Virus record (IMG/VR): IMGVR_UViG_3300003267_000376
From: a virus
Taxonomy: Duplodnaviria > Heunggongvirae > Uroviricota > Caudoviricetes
DNA: 64,000 nucleotides
Strand: one strand, 5' to 3'
Of the stretch, positions 2,314 through 64,000 are shown piece by piece; position 1 is the first letter of the stretch; each line of letters starts with the position of its first letter. Both the position numbers and the translations under genes were made by a program. A model generated the notes under the pieces. That model made no database searches. It had not been told where the DNA came from and was given only the letters and a program-made list of their open reading frames with translations.

Positions 2314-2501
2314 GTGAATCCATTCTGGTGCGCGCCATCGCTGCCGTCCTGAGCGTGGTGATCTGCGCTGGCATCGTGATGGTGCTGTGGAATTTCGTCT
2401 TTAGTCGTGCGATTGGCATTGGCGCCTTGGATTACTGGGCCAGCCTCGCGTTGGTGCTCATCCTGCGCTTCTGCTCACCGCCACGCTGGGAGAACACGTG
2501 A
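2310..2501 (+). CDS. small membrane protein
   Basis: A GTG start overlaps the upstream stop. Two hydrophobic helices are predicted. Confidence 0.4.
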   Translation: MSESILVRAIAAVLSVVICAGIVMVLWNFVFSRAIGIGALDYWASLALVLILRFCSPPRWENT

Positions 2502-5439: not shown

Positions 5440-8400
5440 ATGGCCATTACCCGGACTGCCAAAGGCACCAATACCAGTAAAACCTCAGGGACAACCCTGA
5501 CTCTCGCCAGCGTGTCTATGACCGCTGGCGATTTACTCGTTGTTTCGCTGGCTTACGACGACCAGACCCTCGACAGTGTGACCTGGGGCAGCGAAACGCT
5601 GACTCTCCAGACGGCTGTGCTCGGCGCCGGGGTGCGAACCAGGTTGGCATGGAAGGTTATCGCCAGTACCGGTACTCAAACCATTACCGCCACCTGGACC
5701 GCGAGCCTCACCGCTAAAGCGCTCGCCGCGTCGAGCTACCACTGCGATGTCGGCGGAACGACGCCAGCCGCCGGTGCTGAAGTCAACAACACCGGCACGG
5801 GCACCAGCGCCTCCACCGCTAACTCTAGTGCCATCGTGGGTGGCACGAACTCCATCCTGGCTGGCGTGGTTGGTACTGAAGGCCCCAGCGGTGATACGGC
5901 GGGCACCTGGTCCACACCGAATACCAACGGTCAGCGCGCGGGCACCACCGGTAACCCGGCCGCCAGTAACGTGACGGTCTCTGAGGCCTACACGCTAGGA
6001 CCAGCCGTAGGAAGTACCCCTGCCCTGTCGAAGACGGGCATGACCAGCCGCGACTGGGGTGCTGAGCTGCAAGCGTTCTACTGGTCTACCACGATTAGTA
6101 GTTCCTTCACGGCTAATGCGATTATTAAGGCGACTACGGCGGGGTCATTCACCGCCGACGCCGCGATAACGCTTATTACGTTCCCCATCACGACTAACGC
6201 GGTCATTAAGGCCACGGCTAGCGGCACATTCACGGCTAACGCCATCATCTTTCGAACGGTTGTTGGTTCACCAGGGCCCACGGTTGCCTATAAGACCTCG
6301 GTTAGCACTACAGGAACGCAAATCGATATTCCCCTCGGTACCCCTACCGTTGGTGATCAGCTGCTGATCGTGATCATGAGCGCCCAGGGCAGCGGTCTCA
6401 CCTGGGGATCGACGCCGAGTGGCTGGGTAACTCAGGATTCGACCAATCCCACGAGCACTAAGCCCGGCGCCAAGGTTATGTGGCGCACCGCGACCTCGGC
6501 CGACATCAATGCCACCGTGTCGGTGACGATCAGTTCGTCGTCACCAATGATGGCGGTCCTCGTGCACCTGAACCGCTATCAATGGTTCTCTGGACCGGCG
6601 ACCCTTATCACGACCCTGGTAGATACCACTTCGTCTTTTAGCCCGCCGACCTTCACACCAGACCCTGCTGAATATCGTGCTGCGTGGTGGTTCACCCTCA
6701 AGGACAACAATGAATCCGTAACCGTCCTCTCGGGCCCATTCATGGCCATCGGTGAGCTTAGTGACGGTAGTTGGCGCGCCGCGCTACATTGGGTATACCC
6801 CGGAGTTGTTGGTGGTCGTGCTGTCCCATTTTCACCTGTCGGCACCTTGCAGTGGTCGACCCCCGCAGATGCCCTCAGCTATGGCGTTGTGTTCGGTTGG
6901 ACCACGTCCGGATTCGTCACGGATGCTGTCCTCTCCAAAACGCAGAATGCGAATCTTACCGCCGACGCAGTTATTGCGGCTACTGGTGGATCATGGAACG
7001 CCAGTGTTCTCGCGACGGTAGCGACTGGCGTTGATTCTATGACGGTATCGTCTGGATCGATCACCGTCAATCCGAATCGGTTAATCGTGATCTTCACCGG
7101 TGTGCGCGCCAACACTCAGTCGGGCGATCCCACGATCGGCGGCACGCTCGGCCTGTCATTCTCGAAGGTCGACAGCACCTTTGGCACCGGTGCCTACTAC
7201 GGCATGTTCGTGGCACTGTCCGGTGCAGGCGGTACGGGCACGATCGTGGCCGATTACACCGCCACCGCCGATATCACCCCTGGTTCCGAGACGATGTTCG
7301 TCCTAGAGATCGATGGGGCGGATATTTCGGGGACCGCGCTCGGCGCGATCGTCCAGCACAATTCGAACAACGCCGGTTCATCGACTTCGTCGTCGGTCAC
7401 CCTCGGCGCTGCGGTTGACACCAACAACGCGGTCATCGCTGGAACCCAAGTGCGCGGTGTCAACGAAGACATCACGCCTGATACGGCCGACTCCTTCACC
7501 GAACTCCAAGATCAGGGCAATACCAGCCCGCAGAACCAGGAAGAGACCCAGTGGCGGGCCGGCGGTTTCACGGGAACCACAGTCACGGCCTCGTGGACCA
7601 CCTCGGCTGGTTACCGCATGATTGCGGCCGAGATCAAGAAATCCGGTGGCAGTACTGTCAGTGGCTCCTTCACGGCCAATGCGGTCATTAAGACGACGCA
7701 ATCGGCCAGTCTCACCGCCGATGCAGTCATCAAGGCTACCCAGTCAGCCTCTTTCACGGCTAACGCAGTTCTCTTCAAGACACAATCGCTTAGCTTCGCT
7801 GCTGACGCGATCGTGCTCAAGACGCAGAGCGCAACCTTCGCGGCCGATGGTGTCATCATGGCCACCATCAGCGGTTTCGTCACCGCCAGCGCGGTTCTTA
7901 AGGCTACGCTCAGCGCCAGCTTTACTGCGGACGCGATAGTCTTTAAGACGCAGGCGGCTTCATGTACGGCCGATGCCGTTCTTTTCAAGGCACAGGCCGC
8001 TAGCTTCACGGGTGATGCGTTTCTGCTGGCAGTGCGGAGCGGTTCATTCACTGCCGATGCGGTCGTCTTCAAGACACAATCGGCGTCCTTCGCCGCTGAT
8101 GCGGTCCTGTTCAAGACGCAGAGCGCATCACTCACCGCTGATGCGGTCGCCTCTAAGACGCAGTCTGCGACGTATACCGCAGATGCCGTCCTGCTACGAA
8201 CGCAGGCAGGGTCATTCAGCGCCGATGCCATTGTTCTGAGGACCCAGTCATCGACCTTTGCAGCCGATGCCATCATTCTGCGCACAATCACGTCGCTCAC
8301 TGTCGTCGACAAGTTCTACTTCCATGATGCCGCTACGAGTGACAGTGGCACGCTACCCAGTGGTCAGCTCAGCTCATACACCATCGATGGCAGTGGAACC

Positions 8401-11369: not shown

Positions 11370-12576
11370 TGCTGCGACGGCGCAGTGGGAGCGAGACGAG
11401 CACCTCTTCTTTGAAGGCAAGACCGATGCGGAGATCGTCGCGCTCACCAGCCGCAACCTCGAAGCTGTCGCTCGCAAGCGCCGCCGGTTGGTGGCAGCTG
11501 GCCGCCTGGTTGCGGACCCGCGAGCGGCGGTCGACTCAGCGAAGACGAAGATCCGGGAAGAATTCGCCCGCCGTCAACAGGCGACCCGCATTCGTGAACA
11601 AGCCAGCCTGGAAATGCTCAGCGACGCGCTCCGCTCCGCGATTCAGATCATCCCCTATCGCGAACCGGAGATAGCCCCAGCGGGGACGTACCACTTTGAT
11701 GCTGAGGAAGTAGTCCTGCTGCTTGGTGACCTGCAGGTCGGTGAGCTGGTAGACGAGACGGGGACCGGGGGCCTTGGGCGCTACAACCGGGACGTATTTC
11801 AGCTGCGTTCGGATGTGCTGATGCGCAAGGTGGAACGCATCGTCAAAGGCCACCAGTCGTACCAGCCCCTGCGCACACTCAACATCTTCGGCCTCGGCGA
11901 TTTCGTTGAGGGCATGATGATCTATCCCGGGCAGCTGTCGCACCTGGACATGGATCTGATGGAGCAGGTGTTCATCGGTGCGGACACGGTAGCCCGCATG
12001 GTCGTCTACTGGCTCGGCATGTTTGAGCACATCAACTTGTTCGGCGTACTGGGCAACCACGGTCGCCTTGGCCGTAAAGGGGAGCTCCCAACGACGGCCA
12101 ACATGGACTACCTGTTCCTCAAGTACATCGAACTGGTGTTGCGCGACTACATCACCGCTGGTCGGGTGACCTGCGAATTTCCGAAGACCTTCTTCCAGGT
12201 GGTAGAGCGCCAAGGGCATCGGTTCTTCTTGGTGCATGGCGACGATATTAAGGGATGGATGAGCCTGCCGTGGTATGGCGCGCAGCGCGCCGTACAGCGG
12301 TGGCAGGAGCTGATTCAAGAACGATTCGATTACTTCATCTTTGGACACCACCACACCACGGCGTCGTGGGAGTCCAATTCGAAAGAGGTCATCGCCAACG
12401 GCTCGTTCGTGGGGACGAACGAGCACAGTGCTAAGCACCTGAACGTCGGTGGTCGACCCTCGCAGATCATGTTTGGTCTGCATCAACAGGTCGGTATTAC
12501 GTGGCGATATCGCCTGATGTTGGATGAGGGGGAACCCGCGCGGTCAGTGACCGTCTACCGAGGTGCCCCCTCGTAA
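11362..12576 (+). CDS. calcineurin-like metallophosphoesterase
   Basis: The phosphoesterase motifs LLLGDLQVG, GNHGRLG, LVHGDD and FGHHHT are all present. An N-terminal ~100-aa extension is also present. ATG 11344 is an alternative start. Confidence 0.7.
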   Translation: MANAATAQWERDEHLFFEGKTDAEIVALTSRNLEAVARKRRRLVAAGRLVADPRAAVDSAKTKIREEFARRQQATRIREQASLEMLSDALRSAIQIIPYREPEIAPAGTYHFDAEEVVLLLGDLQVGELVDETGTGGLGRYNRDVFQLRSDVLMRKVERIVKGHQSYQPLRTLNIFGLGDFVEGMMIYPGQLSHLDMDLMEQVFIGADTVARMVVYWLGMFEHINLFGVLGNHGRLGRKGELPTTANMDYLFLKYIELVLRDYITAGRVTCEFPKTFFQVVERQGHRFFLVHGDDIKGWMSLPWYGAQRAVQRWQELIQERFDYFIFGHHHTTASWESNSKEVIANGSFVGTNEHSAKHLNVGGRPSQIMFGLHQQVGITWRYRLMLDEGEPARSVTVYRGAPS

Positions 12577-52826: not shown

Positions 52827-54071
52827 TTAGTGCATGATCGCGTTGACCGCATCCTCGATGCGGTCCGCCTTGTCCTCCACCTGCTCGATGGCAGTGGCCT
52901 GCATGGCTGCCGTATCGGTTAGCATGTCGACCTGGGTGTGCATGGACTCCTGGCGAGAGCGCAGCGTGTGGTGCTGCTCCCACAGGCGTTCCAGGCTCTC
53001 GCCGTGGCGATCGATGCGCTGGTTGGAGCGATGGTCGACCGTCTCGACCGCTCGCTGCGTCTCATCGAGGCGCAGGTTCAGCGTCTCGATCTGACCAGCG
53101 AGTTGCTGGTCGGCCACGAAGTTGTCACCAAGAGAGGCCGCGACCGCCTCGGTGTAGCCCTGCAGCAGTTCGGCCTGACCGTTGATCCGCTGCCGCTGCT
53201 TGTCAGCGTCACCCCGCACTTCGGCCAACTCGAGATCGAGCCGATCGATGTGCTGGGCGAGGGTGTGGATCATGTCGAACGATCGCAGCAGCAGTCCATC
53301 ACGGAAGTGCAGTGCGCTGCTGACATGGGCGATGTGCGACTCGGTGTCGTCAATCTCCCGCAGCAGTTCCTGCTTGATGCCACCCGCCGCCAGATCGACC
53401 TCGCCGACATAGTCGGCCAGTTCGTCGAGCCGTCGCTCGTAGTACTCGTCGGCGAGCAACTGCTCTTCGCGGACATCGTCACGAACCCGAGTGACAGCGA
53501 CCTTGAGGTCTTCGGTCAAGGCCTCATAGACGCCATCGATCTCGAACTTCATGTCGGCCATCAGGCCCTTCTCCGTCCAGCTCAGATCTTCTTCAAGCTC
53601 CTCGACATCGTCGCGCAACTGATCGACGTCCTCGAACAGCTGCGTGGTGATGGCGTACAGGTTGCTGAAGTCATCGGTCTGGCTGGCGAGGTCACGATCG
53701 GCCTGGGCCAGATCCACCGGCGGGAACTGGACGTAGCTGGTGGAGATGCCTTCCTCGTCGTACTGCGAGCTCACGCTCGGCACGCCAAGAGCCTCGTCCA
53801 TCTGCTGATCGAGCTGCTCGGCCAGTGGCCGAGGATCGCTCATGTCGACGACGAGGACCGCGGCTTCGCCACGAGTGGCCCGCTCGGCCAGTTCGGCCGC
53901 CTCGGCTAGATCCTCTGAGTAGGCGCCAGGATGAAAGGCCGGAGCCTCACCCCAGGGCGTGTCGAAATCGTCGGCTTGCGGGAGCGGCATCCCCAGATCG
54001 AGCTGGGTTGCCGCCAAATCTGCGACCGGCTGATGCGCCGGCTCGTTCTTCTCAGCCATGTCGGCCTCCAT
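52827..54071 (-). CDS. acidic coiled-coil protein
   Basis: A long helical, Asp/Glu-rich region is present. The start is probably MEADMAEK (54071) or MAEK (54059). Confidence 0.5.
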   Translation of the reverse strand: MEADMAEKNEPAHQPVADLAATQLDLGMPLPQADDFDTPWGEAPAFHPGAYSEDLAEAAELAERATRGEAAVLVVDMSDPRPLAEQLDQQMDEALGVPSVSSQYDEEGISTSYVQFPPVDLAQADRDLASQTDDFSNLYAITTQLFEDVDQLRDDVEELEEDLSWTEKGLMADMKFEIDGVYEALTEDLKVAVTRVRDDVREEQLLADEYYERRLDELADYVGEVDLAAGGIKQELLREIDDTESHIAHVSSALHFRDGLLLRSFDMIHTLAQHIDRLDLELAEVRGDADKQRQRINGQAELLQGYTEAVAASLGDNFVADQQLAGQIETLNLRLDETQRAVETVDHRSNQRIDRHGESLERLWEQHHTLRSRQESMHTQVDMLTDTAAMQATAIEQVEDKADRIEDAVNAIMH

Positions 54072-54144
54072 ATGCAAGGAACAATGGTCACAGCCGCCTA
54101 CGCGGCAGCCGTCATCTGCCTCAAGGCAGGGATAATCGGGCAAC

Positions 54145-54209
54145 GTCATACGTGTGTGGGTTGGTGGCGTGGCTTGCATCGGATTGGCAAACCCGCGAAC
54201 CCGCGGGTT
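54145..54209 (-). promoter_or_regulatory. conserved leader element D (variant without adjacent RBS)
   Basis: TTTGCCAATCCGATGCAAGCCACGCCACCAACCCACACACGTATGA is preceded by the hairpin AACCCGCG/CGCGGGTT. Confidence 0.5.
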
Positions 54210-54213
54210 AGAC

Positions 54214-54330
54214 CTACCCGAGAACGGTAGTGAGCGCCGCACCGGCAGCGCTACCGACAAACGCGGCATACCAGATCACGAAGAAGACTACCGCCACCCA
54301 GAACCAGACGCCCTCATCCTGCGTCCGCAT
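54214..54330 (-). CDS. small membrane protein
   Basis: Starts at MRTQDEGVWFWVAVVFFVIWYAAFVG. Confidence 0.3.
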   Translation of the reverse strand: MRTQDEGVWFWVAVVFFVIWYAAFVGSAAGAALTTVLG

Positions 54331-54649
54331 CGAGAACCTCAATGCTGACCTCGTACAGGTCAATGATGCGAGGGCGTTCATCGTTGGGGCGGGGTCCCCA
54401 GATGCGGCAATCCTGCCCATTCACGGGCGGGTCTGGCTTGAGGGTCCAGTAGGTGCCGTAGATGTTGGGCGAGGCGATGCCTTCGAGGCCCGACGAGACG
54501 CGGGTCTGGGTGAAGGTCTTGCTGCGGCGGTCAATGCGGAACTGCATGCCACCAGCACTGGTGACCAGCAGCAGGTCGGCCGCCTTGGGTGCCTCGCGCT
54601 GGGGCGTGGTCGGTGCCTCCCCCGTGACCATGGTGACTAGGTTGCTCAT
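54314..54649 (-). CDS. hypothetical protein
   Basis: 111 aa. Confidence 0.45.
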   Translation of the reverse strand: MSNLVTMVTGEAPTTPQREAPKAADLLLVTSAGGMQFRIDRRSKTFTQTRVSSGLEGIASPNIYGTYWTLKPDPPVNGQDCRIWGPRPNDERPRIIDLYEVSIEVLDADAG

Positions 54650-55134
54650 GCGGCGTCTCGCGCCGCCCGGGCATCGGCCTTCTCTTGGTTGCCTTGGCGA
54701 ATCAGCTCCATGAGCTCATCCCGCACCTGATTCATGGCGAGGATGTGCTCGTGGTCATAAGCATAAGCCTCGCCACTGGTCAGCGCTTGCTGCAACAGCA
54801 AGCAGGTCATCTCGAGCAGTTCCGCAGCCTTGAGCAGGATCGTCTTGCCAGTGGGCCAGGCCGTGGCGAGCTCAATCCACTGCTGATCGTGAATGACGTT
54901 CATGACCATGTAGGCCTGCCGCATCTTCTCGACCAGCCCCTGCTGCACTACGAACGAGCGTTCGACGTCGGTCAGCTCCGGCATGTCGAGCACGACCGGT
55001 AGCAGTTCGAGCGGACTCGGCTCATGCTGACCCAGCAGGGCGGCCATCATCTGCATGGCCTGGGCTGGCGACAGAGGACCGTCGTCTTCAGGATCAGGTT
55101 GGAGGTAGTCGAGGGGTCCGTCCTGGTTGCTCAT
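54646..55134 (-). CDS. hypothetical acidic protein
   Basis: 162 aa. Confidence 0.5.
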   Translation of the reverse strand: MSNQDGPLDYLQPDPEDDGPLSPAQAMQMMAALLGQHEPSPLELLPVVLDMPELTDVERSFVVQQGLVEKMRQAYMVMNVIHDQQWIELATAWPTGKTILLKAAELLEMTCLLLQQALTSGEAYAYDHEHILAMNQVRDELMELIRQGNQEKADARAARDAA

Positions 55135-55463
55135 GGTCGCAGGTCCTTGATGTGCTGCGCCACGCCTTCGAAGGTGGCGTTATCGATGCGGGCACGCTGG
55201 GTGTGGGCTTGCTGGAGCAGCAGCCCGAGTGTTTCGAGCGCCTCGCCCTTGCGCACCAAGGTGGCGGCCTGCTCATCATCGAGCGCCTCGATGAAGCGAT
55301 CGTCAACGAGTGAGCCGAGAATCGGTGAGCCGAGGGCAGCGATGAGTTGGCTCATCGCATCGACACCGCGGCGTGCATTCTCCCCGGGCGATATCTCTTC
55401 GAGGCCGGCCTCGGCATAGAGTTGAGCGACGCGCTCTGGATCAGGGACGTTGAAGTTAGCCAT
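55131..55463 (-). CDS. hypothetical protein
   Basis: 110 aa. The ATGGCTAA overlap suggests an upstream small ORF. Confidence 0.45.
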   Translation of the reverse strand: MANFNVPDPERVAQLYAEAGLEEISPGENARRGVDAMSQLIAALGSPILGSLVDDRFIEALDDEQAATLVRKGEALETLGLLLQQAHTQRARIDNATFEGVAQHIKDLRP

Positions 55464-55675
55464 GGATAAATCGCTCCCAATCTGTCGGTGGAGGCGCGGG
55501 CTGTGCGGCCCGCGCCTCCTCGATGGCCTGGTCTGACTGGGTTACGCATGACCAATGCAGCCCGGACAAGGGCTCGCGCCCTTGCCATGGCCACACCAGT
55601 CCATCACACCACTGACAGCGTGGAATCCCCTGCGTACGCCAGCTGCGCCAGGCGAGCCGGATTCGATCGCGCCAG

Positions 55676-57235
55676 TTAGCGCTTCTCAAACCCGAGCTTC
55701 TTCGTGCCACCGCGCTTCTTCGGCTCCTCATCGGCGGCCAACGGAGCAACGGCCTGCGCAGCGGCAGCGGCCGCCACGGTGGTCCCGTTCTTCTCGATGG
55801 CCTCACCCAGGATGGAAGCCGCCTTGACGGTCTCGGACCGCTCGTCCACCGCCTTGAGCTTGAGCAGCTCCAGCTGGTTGGACATGGACAGCGCGGCATC
55901 GATCAGCGCCTGCCGATCGATGACCAACGGGGCCTCCTTGCCGGACTGCTTCTGGAGGCGCAGGGCGGCCAGCTTGGCGCGCTCCACGACCTCACGCAGC
56001 ACGGCCGGGATCTGCCCGTCCATGAGGCGAGCGGCCTCGGTGATGTTCTCATCGGCCGGGATCAGGCTGTTGCCGTAGTGGCGCATCAGCCGCTCAGCGG
56101 CCTCCGCATCCGGCGGGCTGACGTGGATGACAGCATCCAACCGTCCGGGCCGCAGCATGGCCTGGTGGATCCGATCGACGTTGTTCGTGGTCAGGACCAC
56201 GAGGATCTCGGTGTTCTTGGACTCGACGCCATCAACGATGTTGAGGATCTCGTCCATGTCCACGTTCCGCTTGCCATCCAGCACGCGGTCGATGTCCTCG
56301 CAGAAGACAACGGCCGGCTGGTAGTAGCGGGCGAGACGGAGCACATCACCCAGCTCCGAAGCACGGAGGCAGTTGATGTAGGTCCACCCGTTGGCGGTGG
56401 CCAGCTCAGCGGTGGCGGTGGCCGTCATCGACTTACCAGTACCGTACTGGCTCGACAGCAGGATGCCACGCTTGAGCGGCACACCGAGGCGCCGGACCTG
56501 ATCGGTGTTCTCGATGATCGTGAACAGCGACGTGTCGATCGCGGCCTCGACTTCCTTCGAGAAGATCAGGTTCTGACGGGTGTTCCCGGGCAGGTCGAGG
56601 AACTGCGGCTGCGGCATCTCGAGGATGTCGCCGTCCTCATCACGCCAGCGCACCTGCCAGGCCTGGCCGCGATAAATGGAGTTCTCGCGCACATAGCGCT
56701 TGGTCGCCTCGACGATCTCGGCGATCTGCTTCTCATGCACGCGCTTGACCACGCCACCGATGACGAAGACCCACTGGCCATCGACGTAGTCGGCGCTGGT
56801 CTGGACGTAGCCATCGATGCCGGGCAGCTCGAAGCGGCCCCAGGGCACCTCAACCACGGTGTCCTTGCTGGTGGGCACGCTCAGCATGGTCGGCGGCTTG
56901 GGTCCGAACATGGTCGGCGTGGCCACGGAGTTGGCCCAGCCGAACTTCTCACGCAGGACCTGGTAGAACGCGTGGGCTCCATCGAACATGAAGCCGGGGA
57001 TCACCGCGTTGACCGCGACGTCCTGCTTCTCGAAGTCGATCTTCTGCTGCAGGACGACAACGGCGCGCTCCAACGGCAAGGTCTCTGGAATGACCAGCTT
57101 CTCGCCGTGGTGCACAACCTCGATTACATCGGTGATCCGCTTCTTGGTGGTCGCCATTGACTTGTCAGTCTCCTTAGTGGGGGATTGCTTGGCCGCGATC
57201 CGCTCGCGGATTCGGGTGAGTGCGTCAGACGCCAC
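55676..57235 (-). CDS. AAA+ ATPase (classic AAA clade with second region of homology)
   Basis: Walker A is GILLSSQYGTGKS and Walker B is VVFCEDID. The second region of homology is LTTNNVDRIHQAMLRPGRLDAVI. Confidence 0.85.
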   Translation of the reverse strand: MASDALTRIRERIAAKQSPTKETDKSMATTKKRITDVIEVVHHGEKLVIPETLPLERAVVVLQQKIDFEKQDVAVNAVIPGFMFDGAHAFYQVLREKFGWANSVATPTMFGPKPPTMLSVPTSKDTVVEVPWGRFELPGIDGYVQTSADYVDGQWVFVIGGVVKRVHEKQIAEIVEATKRYVRENSIYRGQAWQVRWRDEDGDILEMPQPQFLDLPGNTRQNLIFSKEVEAAIDTSLFTIIENTDQVRRLGVPLKRGILLSSQYGTGKSMTATATAELATANGWTYINCLRASELGDVLRLARYYQPAVVFCEDIDRVLDGKRNVDMDEILNIVDGVESKNTEILVVLTTNNVDRIHQAMLRPGRLDAVIHVSPPDAEAAERLMRHYGNSLIPADENITEAARLMDGQIPAVLREVVERAKLAALRLQKQSGKEAPLVIDRQALIDAALSMSNQLELLKLKAVDERSETVKAASILGEAIEKNGTTVAAAAAAQAVAPLAADEEPKKRGGTKKLGFEKR

Positions 57236-57512
57236 GGCTCTTGGCCTGGGTGTAACGCTTCAGGATGAGGCCTGTCTCGGCGTTGGTGCCGAGTCGACCT
57301 TCCATGGCTTGGATGTATTGGGCGGCAAGGCGTGATGATTCGGGCCGTTTCTTGGCCTCGGCCCGACAGTCCTTGCACAAATACACCGGCTGCACCCCAT
57401 TGATGGGAGTCAACTCCATCACGCAGCCTTCATAGGTCTTGTTGAACTTGTGGGGTCGGGTCTCATCGCAGCGAGCACAGATCAGCTGCATGAGATCAAT
57501 CGTGTTCGGCAT
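57225..57512 (-). CDS. zinc-finger small protein
   Basis: CARCDE...CKDC. Confidence 0.45.
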   Translation of the reverse strand: MPNTIDLMQLICARCDETRPHKFNKTYEGCVMELTPINGVQPVYLCKDCRAEAKKRPESSRLAAQYIQAMEGRLGTNAETGLILKRYTQAKSRGV

Positions 57513-57751
57513 CAGTGCACGATGGTGAGATCAATGCCCTTAGAGACATTGAGTTGCTCGATGCATTGAGCAACGGCTCCGCTCAATGACGTCTTCACGC
57601 CACCTAGTCCGATTGGGACGCCGTCAACGTGGGCAATGGCCATGACTTGCCATCCCAACGTGCCAGTACCAGTCGAATCGAAGATGGCCTGGACCTTGAT
57701 GTCTTCGGGCTTGATGCCTGCATCTAGCAGAGGCTTGAGGGGCTGGCTCAT
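57512..57751 (-). CDS. hypothetical protein
   Basis: The start is preceded by conserved leader element A and an AAGGAG RBS. Confidence 0.5.
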   Translation of the reverse strand: MSQPLKPLLDAGIKPEDIKVQAIFDSTGTGTLGWQVMAIAHVDGVPIGLGGVKTSLSGAVAQCIEQLNVSKGIDLTIVH

Positions 57752-57848
57752 GTTGTCACCTTGGCAGGCTCCTTACGTGTGGGGTTGGCGTGCTGCGTTG
57801 CATGGGATTGGCAATCGGGTCAGCCCGCAGCGCAGACTGACCCGATTG
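57752..57848 (-). promoter_or_regulatory. conserved leader element A (hairpin + ~47-nt motif + RBS)
   Basis: The hairpin is CAATCGGGTCAG/CTGACCCGATTG. The motif TTGCCAATCCCATGCAACGCA...CACACGTAAGGAG, read on the minus strand, ends at the RBS. Confidence 0.6.
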
Positions 57849-57879
57849 ATGTTCGTGTGGCCATGGACACTCGATTAGG

Positions 57880-58179
57880 TCACGTCGGCTCTCCGTAGAT
57901 GTCACCGAGATCGGGACGCCACCAGAGATCAGCCGTAGTGATGGGCTCGACCTTGGTGACCAGGGTGGTGGTGATGAGTCGAAGATTGCCGCTATCCAGC
58001 GGCGGGCCATAGATCTCAACCGGGTGACCCACTTCGACACGAGTGTGACCCCAGAGTTCGCCTTCCTCCGTGCGGAGTGACGCCTCCGGGTCGCTGGCAC
58101 CGGAAGTAGCGGTGCGCTTCCACGTCTTGGCATCGTGGTCAAGTTCGTAGGTGCTGTTGAGCGTGGTGAATCGGATCAT
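57880..58179 (-). CDS. hypothetical protein
   Basis: From internal Met MIRFTTLN. Confidence 0.4.
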   Translation of the reverse strand: MIRFTTLNSTYELDHDAKTWKRTATSGASDPEASLRTEEGELWGHTRVEVGHPVEIYGPPLDSGNLRLITTTLVTKVEPITTADLWWRPDLGDIYGEPT

Positions 58180-58180
58180 C

Positions 58181-58351
58181 ACACCTCCCGCCAGGCTCGA
58201 CTGAACATGAGGTAGAAGCCGATCATGGCTACCACGTCGAGGAAGACCCACACCCACTCTTGCTTGGTGATGTGGTTGTCGATGATCCAGGCGAGGAGAA
58301 TGAAGCCGATGGCGCTGAACACGAGTTCAGCCCACGACTTCCAGCGTGCCT
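58181..58351 (-). CDS. small membrane protein (56 aa)
   Basis: Hand-translated product MKARWKSWAELVFSAIGFILLAWIIDNH... This ORF is not in the track. Confidence 0.35.
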
Positions 58352-58681
58352 TCATTTGAGGATCTCGATGAGGTTCTTCAGCGCCGCTCCCTCGGGAAAG
58401 ATCAGCCCAGGTAGTGACGCGAACAACAGGCCACCACCGAAGACCAACGGGACCAGCCCGAGCAGCCCGATCATGAACCAGCTGTCATCATTGGATTTGA
58501 CGACGCCGATAACCGTGGCGATGATGATCACCACACCGGTCACCAGCAACAATGTGCCAGCGATCACGCCGGTCAAGTTCTCGGCAAACGCTTGCCCCAC
58601 GAGGATATGCCACGCGGCTTGAGCAGTCGGCCCGAGGCGATTCCCGAGTTCATCGAGGACCTTGACGATCTCGTCACTCAT
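58352..58681 (-). CDS. membrane protein
   Basis: Starts at MSDEIVKVL and has 2-3 TM helices. Confidence 0.45.
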   Translation of the reverse strand: MSDEIVKVLDELGNRLGPTAQAAWHILVGQAFAENLTGVIAGTLLLVTGVVIIIATVIGVVKSNDDSWFMIGLLGLVPLVFGGGLLFASLPGLIFPEGAALKNLIEILK

Positions 58682-58866
58682 TGAGCAAGCTCCTTCTTGG
58701 CTTGACGAGCCTTGGCTGCGTGCGGCTTGCACATCCCGTCCTCACGAGGGATCTCGAAGCACAGCTCCTCAGCGCACACGCTTTTGGTGGTGCGGGCGAA
58801 GCGCCAGGCACCAACGCTATTGGGTCGCCGATTGCCGATGTGGACTCGATTGATCTCGCTGACCAT
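58678..58866 (-). CDS. small basic Cys-containing protein
   Basis: 62 aa. Confidence 0.35.
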   Translation of the reverse strand: MVSEINRVHIGNRRPNSVGAWRFARTTKSVCAEELCFEIPREDGMCKPHAAKARQAKKELAQ

Positions 58867-58938
58867 GACGGCCTCCATATCTGACCTTGTGGGTCTTGCG
58901 TGGGAGCGGGACGAGTCGCCCGCTATGCATGCGGCGCT

Positions 58939-59301
58939 TCATCGGTCTGTTATCCGAATCGGGCCGCGTGTGAGTACGCCGTGCTCGAAGTAGCACGAGT
59001 ATTCGAACCACTCATTGGTGGCATCGTTGTTGTCGTAGAAGCGCACTTCACCAGTGAAATCGACGCGGCTGTAGCCGATGGGCACGCGGGTCATGGCACC
59101 GGCGAACCGCATCAAGCCCTTGGCCTTCGGATCGCTGCGATCCTCGATGCGGTAGTCCTCATGTTCGAGGATACCGTTATGGTTGATGCGGTAGGTATCT
59201 AGGTACGGTTCGGCGAACGATTTCGTCTGGAAGTTCGGTTCGAACGAGGCAGGCAGCCCCGCTAACGGGAGCTGACACTCGACGTAATCAAACATCCCCA
59301 T
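58939..59301 (-). CDS. hypothetical protein
   Basis: Starts at MGMFDYVE. Confidence 0.4.
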   Translation of the reverse strand: MGMFDYVECQLPLAGLPASFEPNFQTKSFAEPYLDTYRINHNGILEHEDYRIEDRSDPKAKGLMRFAGAMTRVPIGYSRVDFTGEVRFYDNNDATNEWFEYSCYFEHGVLTRGPIRITDR

Positions 59302-59698
59302 GGCGCATGTCCTCGATGATGCGATGGATTTCTTCGGCGATGAACTCGCCGTCGTCTGACCATCCGAACTCATTACCAGCCACGAACCGCCGCTCAATCT
59401 CGTCCAGCACCGCGTTGCGGGCCTCTCGCCTGAGCAGGTCAAGGTCTACAGGCCACTCGTCACCCGTCTCAGGGTCGAGCATGAAGGTGCGTGGGTCACC
59501 GCCAGACCAGTTCGCGGCGGTGATATTCAGATTTCGGTCACGAAGGTGTTTTGCCATGCGTTCGCACGGCCACGGATGCGGATGCTCTCCATCGTGTGGG
59601 CTTTCATTGCTGCCGTCCACATGAGTGAGCACGCCCTGCTCGATGGAGCACATCGTCTCGTGGAAGAACTGCCGCAAAGCATCGTTATGGTTGCTCAT
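59288..59698 (-). CDS. hypothetical protein
   Basis: 136 aa. Confidence 0.45.
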   Translation of the reverse strand: MSNHNDALRQFFHETMCSIEQGVLTHVDGSNESPHDGEHPHPWPCERMAKHLRDRNLNITAANWSGGDPRTFMLDPETGDEWPVDLDLLRREARNAVLDEIERRFVAGNEFGWSDDGEFIAEEIHRIIEDMRHGDV

Positions 59699-59871
59699 GG
59701 GTAGAACGGCTCCGCTTCCCGCATGCGTACCTCATCCTCACCGAGACGCTCAACAAGGCGGCGACGCTGCTCAGCCTCGATGGCTGCCTTCTGGCGTGCC
59801 AAGTCCTCGTCGCTAAGCGACCTCGGCCATGGCTGCGGCTTGGACTTCCCCAAACGGTCATTTTGTGACAT
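59695..59871 (-). CDS. small hypothetical protein (58 aa)
   Basis: Hand-translated product MSQNDRLGKSKPQPWPRSLSDEDLARQKAAIEAEQRRRLVERLG... It has an ATGA overlap with the downstream gene. Confidence 0.35.
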   Translation of the reverse strand: MSQNDRLGKSKPQPWPRSLSDEDLARQKAAIEAEQRRRLVERLGEDEVRMREAEPFYP

Positions 59872-60076
59872 GGCGTGAGTCCTTCCACCAGCCGTAGAAC
59901 TTCCACGTAATCCATGCGTACAGGAACACGGCAGGCAGCCATGCCCATTGACCCCGGATAATGAGGAAGGCGTACATCAACACGAACACGGCCTCGATTA
60001 CCATGCCGCTGCCGTACACCCACGGGGCGATACGCTTCCGCAAAGACTGCTTATTTGACTCACTCATGAACAGCAC
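59858..60076 (-). CDS. membrane protein
   Basis: 72 aa with two TM helices. Confidence 0.4.
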   Translation of the reverse strand: MLFMSESNKQSLRKRIAPWVYGSGMVIEAVFVLMYAFLIIRGQWAWLPAVFLYAWITWKFYGWWKDSRHVTK

Positions 60077-60405
60077 TCTTTCTGGTTCGGTTCACCGGGA
60101 TCATCCGGCCAGACTGAAAAGACGTTCCGATACATCTCTACCAAGTCCGCCGCCCAACTCTGACCGTCAATCGCATGTTCATGCCGGATGAGTTGAAGAT
60201 GAGCGATAAGGTCATCTATCGCGTCTTGCGGGGTGCGTCCTTCACCGAACATGGGCGAATCGGTGTCGTAAGCAACAAAGGGACACTCGTCTTCAGGATC
60301 GTGGTACTCGCGCCGCACCTTCCCACGAATGACGCCCTGACCGATGCTGACGGCAAAGATGGTTGTATCGGCATGATTCACAACGGTGCTTGACTTCTTG
60401 CTCAT
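60064..60405 (-). CDS. hypothetical protein
   Basis: 113 aa. Confidence 0.45.
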   Translation of the reverse strand: MSKKSSTVVNHADTTIFAVSIGQGVIRGKVRREYHDPEDECPFVAYDTDSPMFGEGRTPQDAIDDLIAHLQLIRHEHAIDGQSWAADLVEMYRNVFSVWPDDPGEPNQKECCS

Positions 60406-60677
60406 TGCCTTGTCTCATCAAGAATGTTAGGGATGTCGTCAACGTTGGGCAGATTCATGATGGTCTCATCGGTCAACGAGAACGCACCATCGACCAAGCC
60501 CGAGATGGCATCCCGCAACGCTTCGAGTGGTGTCGGACCAGCGCCGAGATGGATGGTCTCGCTAGGGTGATCGATCACGGCACAGGCCAGCATCTTGAGT
60601 TCGCCATCGTCACCGATGACCTTGAAGAAAGCGTAGCCCTGGCTCCACAACGTGCGGCGGATTTGTTCGGTGATCAT
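60402..60677 (-). CDS. hypothetical protein
   Basis: 91 aa. Confidence 0.45.
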   Translation of the reverse strand: MITEQIRRTLWSQGYAFFKVIGDDGELKMLACAVIDHPSETIHLGAGPTPLEALRDAISGLVDGAFSLTDETIMNLPNVDDIPNILDETRQ

Positions 60678-60928
60678 CGTGGTACTCGCAAGGGATGGAT
60701 CTGAGGCTTCACGGTCTTGCCGAGTTTCGCTCGCTTACGAGCATACGCCTGCCGTTGCAGTTGGAGTTCATGCTCACGAAAGCCTGGCTTCTGACGTTGG
60801 CGTTGGCGCCATTCACGATGGTACTGGCGCTTCTCCTCGGACATCTCATGATGCTCACCAGGTAGATACGCCTCATCACCTTCGATTTGCAGCGTGGCTA
60901 CCCAGCGTTCATAGGCGGCATCGTCCAT
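60674..60928 (-). CDS. hypothetical basic protein
   Basis: Starts at MDDAAYERW. It is preceded by leader element B and an AAGGAG RBS. Confidence 0.45.
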   Translation of the reverse strand: MDDAAYERWVATLQIEGDEAYLPGEHHEMSEEKRQYHREWRQRQRQKPGFREHELQLQRQAYARKRAKLGKTVKPQIHPLRVPR

Positions 60929-61016
60929 GACGGACTCCTTACGTGTGTGGTGCGGCGTGTGCGTCGCATTGGATTGGCAATCGGCGCAGCCCGCAATGCA
61001 GACTACGCCATTGCCT
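60929..61016 (-). promoter_or_regulatory. conserved leader element B
   Basis: Same motif and hairpin arrangement as A, upstream of the gene that starts at 60928. Confidence 0.6.
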
Positions 61017-61197
61017 ACTACTAGGGGAACAGTGGTGTGCCCCGATGATCGCGAGGATGGTCCCGCTTCACCTGCTGGATCCACGCCAGTGGGTACAGCA
61101 CCACAGCACAGCGTGCACATGGCCGCATCTGCTGCTCAAGGTTGACGTACCCCAGTGGCGTGTGACCAAAGATGAAGCAGGTCAGCCGCTTCAACAT

Positions 61198-61701
61198 CTA
61201 CCCGACCAGCTTCTGGCACTCATCGGTGAAATCATTGCAGACCCTGCAATAGACACCGTCAGCGTCGGAGTCGTGATTGCTGCCACGATGGCCACAACCA
61301 CAGAACGCAGCGAGATCGATCTTGCCCTGGGCAGCGACGGCTTCTTCGCGCTCCTCGGCATCTTCACGCCGCAGCGGAGCGTCCTCGTCCTCCTCCTCTT
61401 CCTCATCGGCGTGGTTACCGATGGGCTTGGCGGGGATGGGGTAGAAGGTGAACGCGTCATCGGCCACCCACACGGTGACGGCCTCACCGTGGGGATCCAC
61501 GTTGATCTCGATGCCAGTGCCGCGCTCAATCGCAATCTGGTACTGCGTATTGCCGATCGAGGCGTAGGCATGGCGCAGCAACTCCTTGAGCAAGCGCATG
61601 CGCTGCTCAGGGTTGTCACCGGCCAGATAGATGCCGCCAACGACCATTTGTTGGTTCTTGACGGAACGATAGATGAGGTAATCGCCCTTGCGAATGTCCA
61701 T
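61198..61701 (-). CDS. hypothetical protein with acidic linker and C-terminal Cys cluster
   Basis: 167 aa. This is preferred over the overlapping Arg/Ser-rich frame. Confidence 0.5.
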   Translation of the reverse strand: MDIRKGDYLIYRSVKNQQMVVGGIYLAGDNPEQRMRLLKELLRHAYASIGNTQYQIAIERGTGIEINVDPHGEAVTVWVADDAFTFYPIPAKPIGNHADEEEEEDEDAPLRREDAEEREEAVAAQGKIDLAAFCGCGHRGSNHDSDADGVYCRVCNDFTDECQKLVG

Positions 61702-61725
61702 CGGAAGTGTGCGTCTCCTGTGCGG

Positions 61726-62124
61726 CTAGGCCGCTCTAATGTGCGGTGAACGAGTGCGGTAGCCCGTGGGCCCACCAATCGAGCCCACCACCACCTGGAT
61801 GGAGGGCTGAATGGCTTCCCACTCGGCTCGCAGCATGGTGGCGTACATGGCTCGCCAGGCTGCCTCGTCATCGGTGCTGAACGAGTGACACTCCTCAGTG
61901 TCGGGGTCACGCGCATCGATCTCGAAGACGAGTGTGCGACTGCCACGTGACTCCGTCTCTGGAAGTGCTGCGATGTATTGAGCCGCTTGGCTCGCGGACG
62001 AGTGAGATTCGCTCAAAGCACGATCATCGCCATTGGCCGCGACAAACGCGACCAACGCGATGGCTTCGGGGTCCTCCGCTAGATAGCCCTGGACGAGGGC
62101 TGAATCGAGGACGAGCGAGGTCAT
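61726..62124 (-). CDS. hypothetical protein
   Basis: Starts at MTSLVLDS. An ATGA overlap suggests coupling. Confidence 0.45.
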   Translation of the reverse strand: MTSLVLDSALVQGYLAEDPEAIALVAFVAANGDDRALSESHSSASQAAQYIAALPETESRGSRTLVFEIDARDPDTEECHSFSTDDEAAWRAMYATMLRAEWEAIQPSIQVVVGSIGGPTGYRTRSPHIRAA

Positions 62125-62378
62125 CAGAATAGGTAATCCTCCAGCCGCCGCACCGTCTCGCAGTTGGTGCAGAGGCAGGTGGGACCGTGCCGTGCCCACA
62201 AGGGACGACGCTCATTGCGCTCCCAGTGACGAGCGGCCACGATCTCGGGGCTGACCTTGACGATGTGCGCGGCACCGCTCTCATCAATCGTGACGGTGTC
62301 GGCTTCGGGGTAGGTATCGGTGCGCATCGCCATGGGCACCGCATACGGGAACGGGCTGGTGCGAACGATCTCCATCAT
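62124..62378 (-). CDS. hypothetical protein
   Basis: Starts at MMEIVRTSP. ATGATG overlaps the upstream stop. Confidence 0.4.
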   Translation of the reverse strand: MMEIVRTSPFPYAVPMAMRTDTYPEADTVTIDESGAAHIVKVSPEIVAARHWERNERRPLWARHGPTCLCTNCETVRRLEDYLF

Positions 62379-62569
62379 GGCCGCATCCCTACCACCAGGC
62401 GAGCACGACGCCGCCAACGATGCAGACGAGTGACGCGCAGCGGCTTGACCAGTTCGGCCAAGCGCAGATCAGCATCGCTGAAATGCGGCTCACGTCGCTT
62501 GATCGCAGACGTGGCGGCCTCAGCGTTCAGCATCTCGATGGTGTAGAGCGGATCGCTGCTGGTGACCAT
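62375..62569 (-). CDS. hypothetical protein
   Basis: 64 aa. Confidence 0.3.
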   Translation of the reverse strand: MVTSSDPLYTIEMLNAEAATSAIKRREPHFSDADLRLAELVKPLRVTRLHRWRRRARLVVGMRP

Positions 62570-62732
62570 GTCGGTCTCCTTGTGGGTACCGGTAGCGGTA
62601 CAACTTCAGGCTGTTGCTCATGACGTAGTTGCCAACGAACAGGCTCACATAGAGGCGAGCCATGCGTCGGTTGAGCGACGACGATGGACCATCCACCGCT
62701 AGCCGTAGCCAGGGTGGGCCGACAATGAACAT
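62520..62732 (-). CDS. hypothetical protein
   Basis: The start codon lies at a conserved distance downstream of leader element C. Confidence 0.3.
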   Translation of the reverse strand: MFIVGPPWLRLAVDGPSSSLNRRMARLYVSLFVGNYVMSNSLKLYRYRYPQGDRHGHQQRSALHHRDAER

Positions 62733-62815
62733 AGCGTCCTCACGTGTCGTGGTTGGCTTATGCGTTGCGGCGTATTGGCAATGGGCATGGCCCGCAGTGC
62801 AGACCACGCCCATTG
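62733..62815 (-). promoter_or_regulatory. conserved leader element C
   Basis: Same motif. The hairpin CAATGGGCATGG/CCACGCCCATTG is a compensatory variant of the A hairpin. Confidence 0.55.
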
Positions 62816-62832
62816 ACCAGTGCGTCGGTGTG

Positions 62833-63021
62833 CTACTCGCCGAGAGCAGCGAGATGCTGACGAGCGAGAGCGCCGAGTTCCTGCTTGTCCGTGTCGGGCA
62901 GCTCCCGCCACTGAGCGAGGAACTCAGCGTTGGTCTCGGTCTCCAGCTTCAGGACCTTGAATGCGGGCTTGAGATCACCGACCTCAGGCTTGAGGTCAGC
63001 AGCCTCACCTCCAGTGGCCAT
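62833..63021 (-). CDS. hypothetical protein
   Basis: 62 aa with an AAAGGAGG RBS. Confidence 0.4.
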   Translation of the reverse strand: MATGGEAADLKPEVGDLKPAFKVLKLETETNAEFLAQWRELPDTDKQELGALARQHLAALGE

Positions 63022-63063
63022 GTCGGCCTCCTTTGTGCTGGGATGGTGCCGCGATCTACGACA

Positions 63064-63106
63064 CTCACGCGAGCAGCACCACCGACGAGTGATGCTGCCT
63101 CGTGAG
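63064..63106 (-). terminator. stem-loop (CTCACGCGAGCAGCA/TGCTGCCTCGTGAG) just downstream of gene 63111..63254
   Basis: An inverted repeat of ~13 bp with one mismatch. Confidence 0.35.
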
Positions 63107-63110
63107 AGCC

Positions 63111-63254
63111 CTAGTCACCAGCGATGACCCAGCGCAAGGCTAGGTACAGCACCAGTGAGAAGAACACGACCGCGACGCCAATCGCCGCGAACGTGAACAA
63201 GCGGAGAACGATCTCCGCCAGACCCTGGAGCGTGGTACTGAGGTTCGCCGCCAT
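63111..63254 (-). CDS. small membrane protein
   Basis: Starts at MAANLSTTLQGLAEIVLRLFTFAAIGVAVVFF. Confidence 0.3.
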   Translation of the reverse strand: MAANLSTTLQGLAEIVLRLFTFAAIGVAVVFFSLVLYLALRWVIAGD

Positions 63255-63264
63255 GATTGTCACC

Positions 63265-63456
63265 TCACTTCGTACTGAGCCAGCAGGCTTCACACAACAG
63301 ATCGTGTCCTGGGAGGGCGTCGCAGCCGCCGCACCAGTCACACGCTGCATGCTCACCAGAGTGGTTCACACAGTGTGCGTCGGGCTCGTTAGGCTCGAAC
63401 TCCCGCCACAGTGCGTCGCACTCGGTACAGACTGCCTTGATTGCGACCGCCGCCAT
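63265..63456 (-). CDS. Cys-rich zinc-binding-like small protein
   Basis: CTECD...HCVNH...CDWCGGC...CEAC. Confidence 0.4.
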   Translation of the reverse strand: MAAVAIKAVCTECDALWREFEPNEPDAHCVNHSGEHAACDWCGGCDALPGHDLLCEACWLSTK

Positions 63457-63870
63457 ACGAGTGTCCTCCTCCAAGAGAGAGAGAGTGAACCAAAAGGGGA
63501 CTGCCACTAGGTGAGGGCTTATCTGTTCGGGTGCCCCACGTATCGGTGGAGGGCAAAGTTTGAGAACAGCGCCTCACCTAGCGCAGATAGGGAAGTGTGA
63601 GGCGTGCTTTGGTCAGCGCACGCGAGCATATAGGCAGTGCTTAACGCCACTGCCACCGTGCCACTTCGAGCATACGCTCAGGGCTGCTGCTGCACCCTAA
63701 CGAGTGGGCTTCGGCGCAGAGTGGATTATTGCAAAAACAACGGTCACCACTCGTCGCTCGCCGCACAAAGTTTGCAACTTTTCCGTGCGGACCGAACGAG
63801 TGGCCGCTCGCCATGTGAGTGCAAGGCATAGGAAAGGCCGGCCCCAGGTGGGACCGGCCTTCCGTGGGTT

Positions 63871-64000
63871 ACTTCGCCGCGTTCTTGGCGCGGTTCACGG
63901 CGGCCAGGGCGCGAGCGCCATCGTCGCAATGCTGCCGCTTGCCATCGGCGTCGCGGTAGCCGTTATGCGCTTTGGCACCGGTGCCGCCAGCGCGGAACAG
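63871..64000 (-). CDS. 3' end of an ORF entering from beyond the window
   Basis: The open frame ends at the TAA complement at 63871-63873, next to a GC-rich hairpin at ~63828-63860. Confidence 0.3.

Follow-up and report, generated by a model that had tools for sequence, protein, structure and literature searches.

The stretch of DNA analysed here, referred to as the window (64,000 nucleotides (nt); IMG/VR record IMGVR_UViG_3300003267_000376, Caudoviricetes), represents most of the ~75-kb genome of an uncultured phage from a soil metagenome (JGI 3300003319). The late and structural genes, which encode the capsid, an adaptor, a typical tape measure protein of 2072 amino acids (aa) and tail proteins, are located on the plus strand, and the terminase and portal genes lie just to the left of the window on the contig L035. 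A leftward operon of mostly ORFan early genes extends from ~63.9 kb down to ~38 kb, and contains the genes of an AAA ATPase (phrog_10440), RadC, a ParB-like protein, Erf and an exonuclease. Within this operon, a cassette composed of a hairpin and a leader of ~45 nt is repeated between the genes. The cassette is a real, conserved and structured regulatory element, and it represents a new sequence family of a kind already known in phages, namely the composite hairpin/promoter or start-associated cassettes.

A search for the 21-nt leader core, TTGCCAATCCNATGCAACGCA, allowed up to 3 mismatches. Exactly four matches were obtained, all on the minus strand (54170-54190, 57794-57814, 60960-60980 and 62761-62781), whereas 100 shuffled sequences gave none. 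Each leader is preceded by a strong hairpin, so the four copies described in the initial annotation are confirmed. The copies are located on the sense strand at ~57.8 (copy A), 61.0 (copy B), 62.8 (copy C) and 54.2 kb (copy D), and their scores with the covariance model described below are 89.7, 83, 87.5 and 62.5 bits, respectively. No further strong copy was found over the 64-kb window by nhmmer and the covariance model. When the copies are aligned by anchoring on TTGCCA, the alignment is almost gap-free. The order of the elements is as follows: the hairpin, block I (TTGCCA(A/C)T.C), 3 variable nt, block II (GC.A(C/G)GCA), a spacer of ~17 nt, and block III (C(A/T)C(A/T)CGT-R-N-GG). The junction of blocks I and II reads TTGCCAAT.C - N3 - GC.A(C/G)GCA. 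The sequences TCTGCNNTGCGGG and TCTGCnnTGCGGG are each exact in copies A, B and C.

All four copies are described here on the minus strand. The hairpin of copy C (62779-62815) consists of a 17-bp stem and a 3-nt loop, CAATGGGCGTGGTCTGC-ACT-GCGGGCCATGCCCATTG, and the energies calculated by RNAfold are -32.5 kcal/mol for the sense strand and -20.9 kcal/mol for the antisense strand. Its leader (62736-62781) reads TTGCCAATAC-GCC-GCAACGCA-N17-GTGAGGAC. A doubtful 70-aa open reading frame (ORF) starts at 62732 after this leader and is not called by the metagenome annotation. The next called gene starts at 62569, and its homologue directly follows the cassette in L028, a contig of a related phage. 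In copy B, the hairpin (60978-61014; CAATGGCGTAGTCTGC-ATT-GCGGGCTGCGCCGATTG) is located directly after a triple stop, TAGTAGTAG; the upstream gene ends in these three consecutive in-frame stop codons at 61022-61030 on the minus strand. The leader of copy B (60935-60980) carries its GGAG 6 nt before the ATG at 60928, where an ORFan gene of 84 aa begins (gene B; 60674-60928, minus strand). The hairpin of copy A (57812-57848) reads CAATCGGGTCAGTCTGC-GCT-GCGGGCTGACCCGATTG, and the leader (57769-57814) has its GGAG 17 nt from the ATG at 57751. The gene after copy A (57512-57751, minus strand) encodes a protein of 79 aa, to which no function is assigned. In copy D, a shorter 8-bp stem of different sequence, AACCCGCG-GGTT-CGCGGGTT, is observed at 54190-54209, just after the stop codon of the upstream gene (54214-54216), and the register between its 3' end and TTGCCA is that of the other copies. 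The leader of copy D (54144-54190) reads TTGCCAATCC-GAT-GCAAGCCA-...-CACACGTATGACG, and an ATG (54149-54147) is contained within its block III. According to the initial annotation, the motif ends exactly in the ribosome-binding site in three copies. Among the window copies, this holds only for copy B, in which GGAG is a well-spaced Shine-Dalgarno (SD) sequence. The working SD of the gene after copy A is AAGGTGA rather than the motif GGAG, and the start after copy C belongs to the uncalled ORF.

The sequence CCCGCAnnGCAGA had been regarded as a conserved loop. It is instead paired within the 17-bp stem, where two G·U pairs allow UCUGC of the sense strand to pair with GCGGG, and the loop of copies A-C is 3 nt of variable sequence. 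Across all copies the stems are 8-17 bp and the loops mostly 3 nt. The covariation statistics were calculated for the 14 full copies, among them those with the aberrant stem of the D type. Standard pairs are found in 75% of the cells, compared with 36-43% after a shift of the 3' partner by 1-3 columns, and the covariation score is 0.308, compared with ~0.10-0.12. The observed values were reached by one of 500 shuffles. Double (compensatory) changes are present at 7 of the 17 pairs, in agreement with the compensatory base changes noticed initially. The lower stem shows a complete turnover between copies, whereas the apex is conserved as G-U-C-(U/C)-G-(C/U) / G-C-G-G-G-C. Columns 18-30 form U·G in 12 of the 14 copies and otherwise only C-G, and the pair of columns 20-28 alternates among U·G, C-G and U-A. 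The G·U pairs of the sense strand correspond to C·A mismatches on the plus strand, and in each of the 15 copies the sense strand gives the more stable fold, with an advantage of 0.5-13 kcal/mol. These results indicate that selection on the hairpin structure acts in the sense transcript; selection in the single-stranded DNA of the sense strand is less plausible. The hairpin is located 0-40 nt after the upstream stop codon. In all 15 copies its 3' end includes the first T's of TTGCCA, and it thus abuts TTGCCAAT.

The internal geometry of the cassette is nearly fixed. The distance from TTGCCA to GTR is 30-33 nt and most often 32 nt, whereas the distance from the leader to the start codon varies from 0 to ~95 nt. 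The element is therefore positioned as a unit and not as a ribosome-binding site, and the view of the motif as simply an RBS-bearing leader is not supported. The spacer is C/A-rich, G-poor and variable in sequence. Neither covariation nor structure was detected in the leader; a TTGC/GCAA helix proposed by RNAalifold shows no covariation. The core heptamer of block III, CAC(A/T)CGT, is found at 21 positions on the minus strand of the window and at 3 on the plus strand. On the minus strand, nine of the occurrences lie within 61.7-63.8 kb (61756-63802), four of them in one 132-aa gene, and others are located at 54156, 57781 and 60947.

Homologues of the AAA ATPase with 76-79% protein identity were found on other metagenome contigs, and the flanking regions on L017, L019 and L021 carry the cassette. 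Further contigs with the cassette are L028, a locus obtained by the DNA-pattern scan, and L033. In total, 15 copies were identified in four related phages, and all of them are on the sense strand and intergenic. A search of related phages with a covariance model had been proposed together with the initial annotation. With the model built from the alignment, 14 copies score 55-90 bits, and the partial copy of L033 scores 24.5 bits. Two copies hold positions that are orthologous across the phages, namely the one in front of the gene of 76-79 aa, which lies two genes upstream of the ATPase gene, and the one in front of the coiled-coil gene. Copy A has its counterparts at L017:9361-9448 and L019:1727-1814, each followed by the homologue of the 76-79-aa gene. 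L017 lacks homologues of most genes located between the cassettes, and some of these genes occupy rearranged positions beside cassettes. The orthologous positions indicate that the cassette is not a randomly scattered repeat. Two contigs break inside copies, as L020 starts (1-74) and L033 ends (3854-3899) within the motif. Such breaks are as expected for a dispersed repeat, and they warn against reading contig ends as transcript ends.

An exact-pattern scan of JGI metagenomes gave L028 as the sole real match. The same kind of scan gave only 16 chance matches in IMG/VR, none with a hairpin, and two chance matches in the GTDB species-representative genomes. No relatives of the ATPase were found in IMG/VR. 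In the more distant contig L026, the ATPase is 61% identical and the motif is absent, and a repeated cassette of its own is present at four intergenic sites (6850-6990, 8440-8545, 12080-12185 and 6110-6220). This cassette differs in sequence but is built in the same way, from a hairpin after the stop codon and ~55 nt ending in ...GGCA(C/T)-N18/19-CGTTCGTTCGTCACA-GGAGG-ATG. In L038 (ATPase 54% identical), long hairpins follow the stop codons in most of the larger intergenic gaps, with no obvious shared leader. From these comparisons, the hairpin appears to be a general feature of the wider phage group, and the leader appears to be lineage-specific. A lineage-specific leader would be expected if it co-evolves with a phage-specific recognition factor.

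A probable fifth copy (copy E), degenerate in sequence, is located at 63786-63869 on the minus strand, outside the range given in the initial annotation. A hairpin, GGAAGGCCGG...CCGGCCTTTCC, is followed by TTGCAC...CCACTCGTTCGG. In a search of 63400-64000 without filters, copy E scores 14.3 bits over the full covariance model, and its orthologue at L017:1839-1915 scores 23.4 bits (E = 1.6e-5). The hairpin, TTGCA(C/G) and the CCACTCGT elements are shared with L017 and L028, that is, among three phages. Copy E closely follows the first gene of the leftward operon. A non-coding leader of ~330 nt (63457-63790, minus strand) then extends to the first small gene, and blocks of this leader are kept in L017 and L028 (TGTGCGGCGA, GTTTTTGC and CTCGTT(A/G)G). 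It may be a long 5' untranslated region or a small RNA. Its potential to base-pair with the cassette leaders did not exceed that obtained for shuffled sequences. A CAC(A/T)CGT heptamer is present at the start of the first small gene (GGAGGAGGACACTCGTATG, 63463), and a second box, CCCACTCGTTAGGG, is located at 63707.

Copy D had been placed 75-150 nt upstream of the coiled-coil gene (gene D). The comparison of the four phages shows a different arrangement. An in-frame ATG is present within block III in all four (GTATG; TGATG in L021), 38-41 nt after TTGCCA, and there is no alternative start codon common to all of them. The 28-40 codons added by this start encode a conserved Cys-rich segment, DPC...GC.(V/A)GGC.HC, in which the differences are mostly synonymous changes at the third position (GGC/GGA, TGT/TGC, CAT/CAC and GTA/GTT). 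Thus gene D most probably starts at the ATG of block III and occupies 52827-54149 on the minus strand. The predicted product of 440 aa has a Cys-rich N-terminus, an acidic region and a coiled-coil C-terminus, and only weak matches to DUF16 and to a winged helix-turn-helix (HTH) were obtained in Pfam. No purine-rich SD precedes the ATG of gene D, whereas nearly every other gene here has a strong SD. The start without an SD suggests that the 5' end of the mRNA would be at or very near the A of this ATG, that is, that gene D has a leaderless message. In L028 (reverse complement, ~395-415), a divergent early gene shows the textbook leaderless arrangement TATACT-N6-ATG, which suggests that the host would be able to translate leaderless mRNAs.

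Other features of the genome are as follows. The AAA ATPase gene (55676-57160, minus strand; phrog_10440) encodes a protein that shares 44-46% identity with its counterparts in the N4-like podoviruses of Pseudomonas, Salmonella, Erwinia and Klebsiella, and only ~32% with those in Gordonia and Mycobacteroides phages. The gene is widely exchanged among unrelated phage groups. The 213-nt gap after it contains a strong 12-bp GC hairpin (55490-55519, minus strand; GGAGGCGCGGGC-CGCACA-GCCCGCGCCTCC) with neither a U-tract nor the cassette motif, and a second hairpin is located ~40 nt upstream. ParB_N-type domains are present in two of the phage proteins, and weak HTH matches were obtained for several proteins. 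Near the packaging genes (L035:1-970, 5.4 kb to the left of the window, and window 2498-4238), a PTPS/QueD-like gene, the gene of the second ParB_N protein, a methyltransferase gene, a nucleoside diphosphate (NDP)-sugar epimerase gene and glycosyltransferase genes are present. These genes possibly serve the modification of DNA or virions. A protein of 1807 aa (5440-10863, plus strand) consists mostly of tandem ~20-aa repeats (...SASFTADAV(I/L)...). It gave no Pfam, PHROG or meaningful PDB match, and it is presumably a fibre or decoration protein. No tRNA genes were detected in the window. No Rfam family reached the gathering threshold in a scan of the window, and a permissive scan added nothing beyond one chance-level match to a hairpin, toga_FSE (28.5 bits against a threshold of 40). 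Among 50,697 deposited phage records, no close relative was found by megablast of the region or by tblastn of the capsid.

Judging from the sequences, the cassette may be a composite of an RNA hairpin, serving as an attenuator or a 3'-end structure, and a lineage-specific promoter or 5'-end-forming element. Of the readings considered, this one is the best supported, and we hold it tentatively, as a credible account that falls somewhat short of a probable one. The cassettes would separate transcription or expression units in the early, ORFan-rich leftward operon. The hairpin would most likely attenuate or terminate the upstream transcription, or form a protective or processing 3' structure, and the promoter-like leader of ~45 bp would determine where a new mRNA begins, namely at the purine of GT-R or close to it. 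For the genes B, L17c and L19c, the SD would then be placed near the mRNA 5' end, and gene D would be expressed from the cassette as a leaderless mRNA. The reader would be the host RNA polymerase (RNAP) redirected by a phage factor, because there is no σ70 consensus and no recognisable phage RNAP or sigma factor. The internal geometry, which is fixed while the distance to the start codon varies, the presence of a copy close to the operon head, the absence of an SD before gene D, the lineage-specific leader and the parallel with the PeSL cassettes discussed below are consistent with such a hairpin-promoter composite. The initial annotation had read the element as a structured RNA or a terminator-plus-promoter cassette that may mark a co-regulated gene set; as applied to the early genes, this broad reading fits the evidence.

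Several results weigh against the composite reading. In the promoter scan, no -35/-10 pair of the σ70 type was found at any cassette. At 16-18 nt after TTGCCA, the copies share no conserved hexamer and contain none that fits TANNNT, and TA.GG(A/G) inside block III never ends in T. TTGCCA was rejected as a σ70 -35 element, as no -10 element lies 15-18 nt downstream, and the σ54 geometry was rejected on inspection of the sequences. Promoters of the extracytoplasmic function (ECF) sigma factors are characterised by AAC, conserved in the -35 element, and by a -10 element with CGT that follows after 16-17 nt. An ECF-like layout, GCAAC-N19-CGTA, is present in the cassettes, with AAC in only 6 of 14 copies and a spacer of 18-20 nt; a start 6-8 nt downstream would leave the ATG of gene D off the transcript. 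The same exclusion of this ATG results when block II is taken as -35 and CGTA as -10 with the start 6-8 nt further. With the 5' end at GT-R, the blocks would be located at about -40, -27 and -9, which is a non-standard geometry for a bacterial RNAP. No cassette hairpin was called as a canonical intrinsic terminator with a U-tract (at least 5 T in 8 nt), and only 2-4 T follow the stems. The stretch from the hairpin to GTR has a sense-strand composition of 47% C, 29% A, 13.5% G and 10% T, and such a G-poor and C/A-rich leader suggests selection on a transcribed and unstructured RNA, which would favour the RNA-level explanation described below.

The search for the polymerase and the factor also counts against a promoter. 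No phage RNAP or sigma factor was recognised in the 69.4 of ~75.2 kb covered, where ~50 proteins were compared with Pfam and PHROGs, the three largest ORFs were compared with PDB sequences, and a motif scan and a composition check identified a tape measure protein and a repetitive, fibre-like protein. The three largest ORFs showed no match to a solved polymerase. A 182-aa protein of L026 with a weak "Sigma70_r4" match was considered and set aside; it looks like a double HTH, and it has no homologue in the window or the close relatives. The homologues of the terminase and portal proteins are scattered over Actinobacteria, Firmicutes, Proteobacteria and Thermus, and no host is assignable, which is a further point on this side.

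A more specific form of the composite reading is a "terminate-and-reinitiate" cassette, which we regard as improbable. The nascent hairpin with its G·U apex would halt the host RNAP, or release it, at a constant spacing from a non-canonical promoter, and a small phage factor would restart the same polymerase while it is still on the DNA. If this were true, each cassette would reset transcription and yield mRNAs that are leaderless or have the SD at the 5' end, and the cassettes would represent a new class of phage-directed promoters without the signature of σ70, ECF or phage-RNAP promoters.

The best surviving alternative, possible though doubtful in our view, is a cis element acting purely at the RNA level within one long polycistronic early transcript, with no transcription start at the cassette. 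The hairpin would be a structure for processing or stability, such as a site of the RNase III type or a barrier to exonucleases, and the C/A leader would be a site for a protein or RNase together with a ribosome-loading region. Cleavage near GU-R would make the 5' ends, including that of the leaderless mRNA of gene D. A perfect 17-bp stem is compatible with processing by RNase III. The G·U pairs and the stability of the sense fold in 15 of 15 copies fit a hairpin selected in RNA, and the leaders of both the present cassette and L026 are G-poor and C/A-rich on the sense strand. The fixed register of the hairpin and the leader suggests a single recognition unit. No promoter consensus, sigma factor or RNAP could be recognised, and the hairpins of L038, which lack a shared leader, suggest that the hairpin is the older and more general feature. 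However, blocks I and II lie ~20-40 nt upstream of the presumed cleavage and are not explained by the known specificities of RNase E or RNase III, and the leader itself shows neither covariation nor structure. The degenerate copy is located near the operon head after the first gene, where a promoter is expected, and two blocks separated by a spacer of fixed length and variable sequence are typical of promoters.

Taken together, covariation, strand asymmetry and positional orthology leave little room for the readings as an operator, a selfish repeat or an N4-type promoter. The cassettes are unlikely to be DNA operators for a phage regulator, comparable to the stoperators of Cluster A or the conserved inverted repeats of phiC31, in which the hairpin would be an inverted repeat bound by a dimer. 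Multiple oriented copies in the early region, the near-palindrome ATTGCCAAT in the window copies A-C, and the encoded proteins (two of the ParB_N type and several with weak HTH matches) would suit an operator. However, the lower stem covaries rather than conserving its sequence, and the apical half-sites are always asymmetric, with T on the left and G on the right, which corresponds to G·U pairing and not to the symmetry of a dimer. In addition, the ATTG/CAAT palindrome is lost in the relatives (TTTGCCAAT or TTTGCCACT).

It is very unlikely that the cassette is a selfish or neutral mini-element, similar to a miniature inverted-repeat transposable element (MITE), without a regulatory role. The sequence identity of ~65-90% between copies and the contigs that break within them (the start of L020 and the end of L033) recall such an element. 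Nevertheless, all copies are intergenic and sense-oriented, their stem is upheld by compensatory changes, and neither terminal inverted repeats nor target duplications were seen. A mobile mini-element without positional relation to gene starts had been named initially as the alternative to a regulatory motif; the cassette keeps its place before orthologous genes, in phages whose flanking ATPase is only 76-79% identical.

Hairpin promoters of the N4 type, read on extruded single-stranded DNA by an injected virion RNAP, are largely refuted and scarcely credible here: such a promoter has a stem of 5-7 bp and a 3-nt loop on the template strand and is accompanied by a giant virion RNAP, and although the 3-nt loops, the purine at the loop centre of the template strand in copies A, B and C, the several copies within the first 10 kb of the early region and the AAA ATPase ~45% identical to that of N4-like phages are reminiscent of it, the better hairpin is on the non-template strand (C·A mismatches occur on the template strand), the stems are 8-17 bp, the conserved leader runs 45 nt past the hairpin, the 2072-aa ORF is the tape measure, the 1807-aa ORF consists of fibre-like repeats, none of the three largest ORFs matches a solved polymerase, and the ATPase is also encoded by many phages outside the N4-like group.

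Should the cassettes be promoters, they would define the recognition sequence of a new transcription specificity system in a poorly known lineage of soil siphoviruses of ~75 kb, composed of the host RNAP and a phage factor without homology to the known sigma factors, and they would mark the middle-gene regulon of the phage. The fixed fusion of the hairpin to the promoter-like element, and likewise the SD-less start within this element, is a clean system for studying how termination or processing is coupled to reinitiation. If the cassettes are only sites of RNA processing or stability, they would be a routine addition to the known signals of phage gene expression. The 14 covarying sequences and the covariance model are a ready tool for searches.

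The cassette was compared with the known systems. In the T7 group, intergenic hairpins that are RNase III sites stand beside phage-RNAP promoters in long early and middle transcripts. The conserved intergenic hairpins are shared with the present phage, and block III with the start (CACWCGTA-GGAG) loosely resembles the promoters of single-subunit RNAPs, which terminate in ...TATA-GGGAGA. On the other hand, no phage RNAP gene was found here, the conservation reaches ~-40, and the present stems are perfect, whereas the RNase III sites of T7 have internal loops. The early region of phiC31, studied by Ingham, Smith and co-workers in 1993-95, reportedly contains repeated and highly similar non-σ70 promoters and GC-rich terminators without U-tails. 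No homology between the present phage and phiC31 was detected. On this description, the two would be alike in having repeated non-σ70 early elements and GC hairpins without U-tails in a GC-rich siphovirus.

A resemblance to the start-associated sequences (SAS) of the Cluster K mycobacteriophages (Pope et al., 2011) in arrangement, with a different sequence, had been suggested in the initial annotation. The SAS has a 13-nt consensus, GGGATAGGAGCCC, at gene starts, and the extended SAS (ESAS) is an imperfect 17-nt inverted-repeat pair with a variable spacer upstream of the SAS (PMC12699233). The consensus, searched with up to 2 mismatches, gave one match, at 39866, where 1.6 are expected by chance, and none at the cassettes. 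The arrangement is similar in that a motif including GGAG lies by gene starts, with imperfect inverted repeats upstream of it and outside the structural genes. The present motif is longer (45 nt) and its distance to the start codon is variable, and its inverted repeat is a compact hairpin abutting the motif. Copies A, B and C also contain an inverted repeat of 17 bp, with an invariant 3-nt spacer and a sequence that bears no relation to the ESAS.

Finally, the T4-type PeSL (promoter-early stem-loop) cassettes combine verified promoters with terminator stem-loops in ORFan-rich regions (Arbiol et al., 2010, PMC2839356; Comeau et al., 2014, PMC4122927). The PeSL promoters are σ70-like and experimentally verified, whereas the present cassette has no σ70 consensus. 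The position of the PeSL stem-loop varies relative to the promoter, whereas the hairpin is always upstream and in a fixed register here. The present hairpin also has the conserved G·U apex, and only 4-5 copies are present per genome, in a GC-rich siphovirus. In other respects the two are comparable. Both are conserved composite intergenic units of ~100 bp between the upstream stop codon and the downstream SD/ATG, and both join a stem-loop (terminator or attenuator) to a promoter, which in the present cassette is a candidate. As in the PeSL cassettes, a stable intergenic stem-loop follows the upstream stop codon, and the flanking genes differ between close relatives. Both cassettes are repeated in an ORFan-rich and plastic early region, and both differ in sequence from one phage lineage to another.

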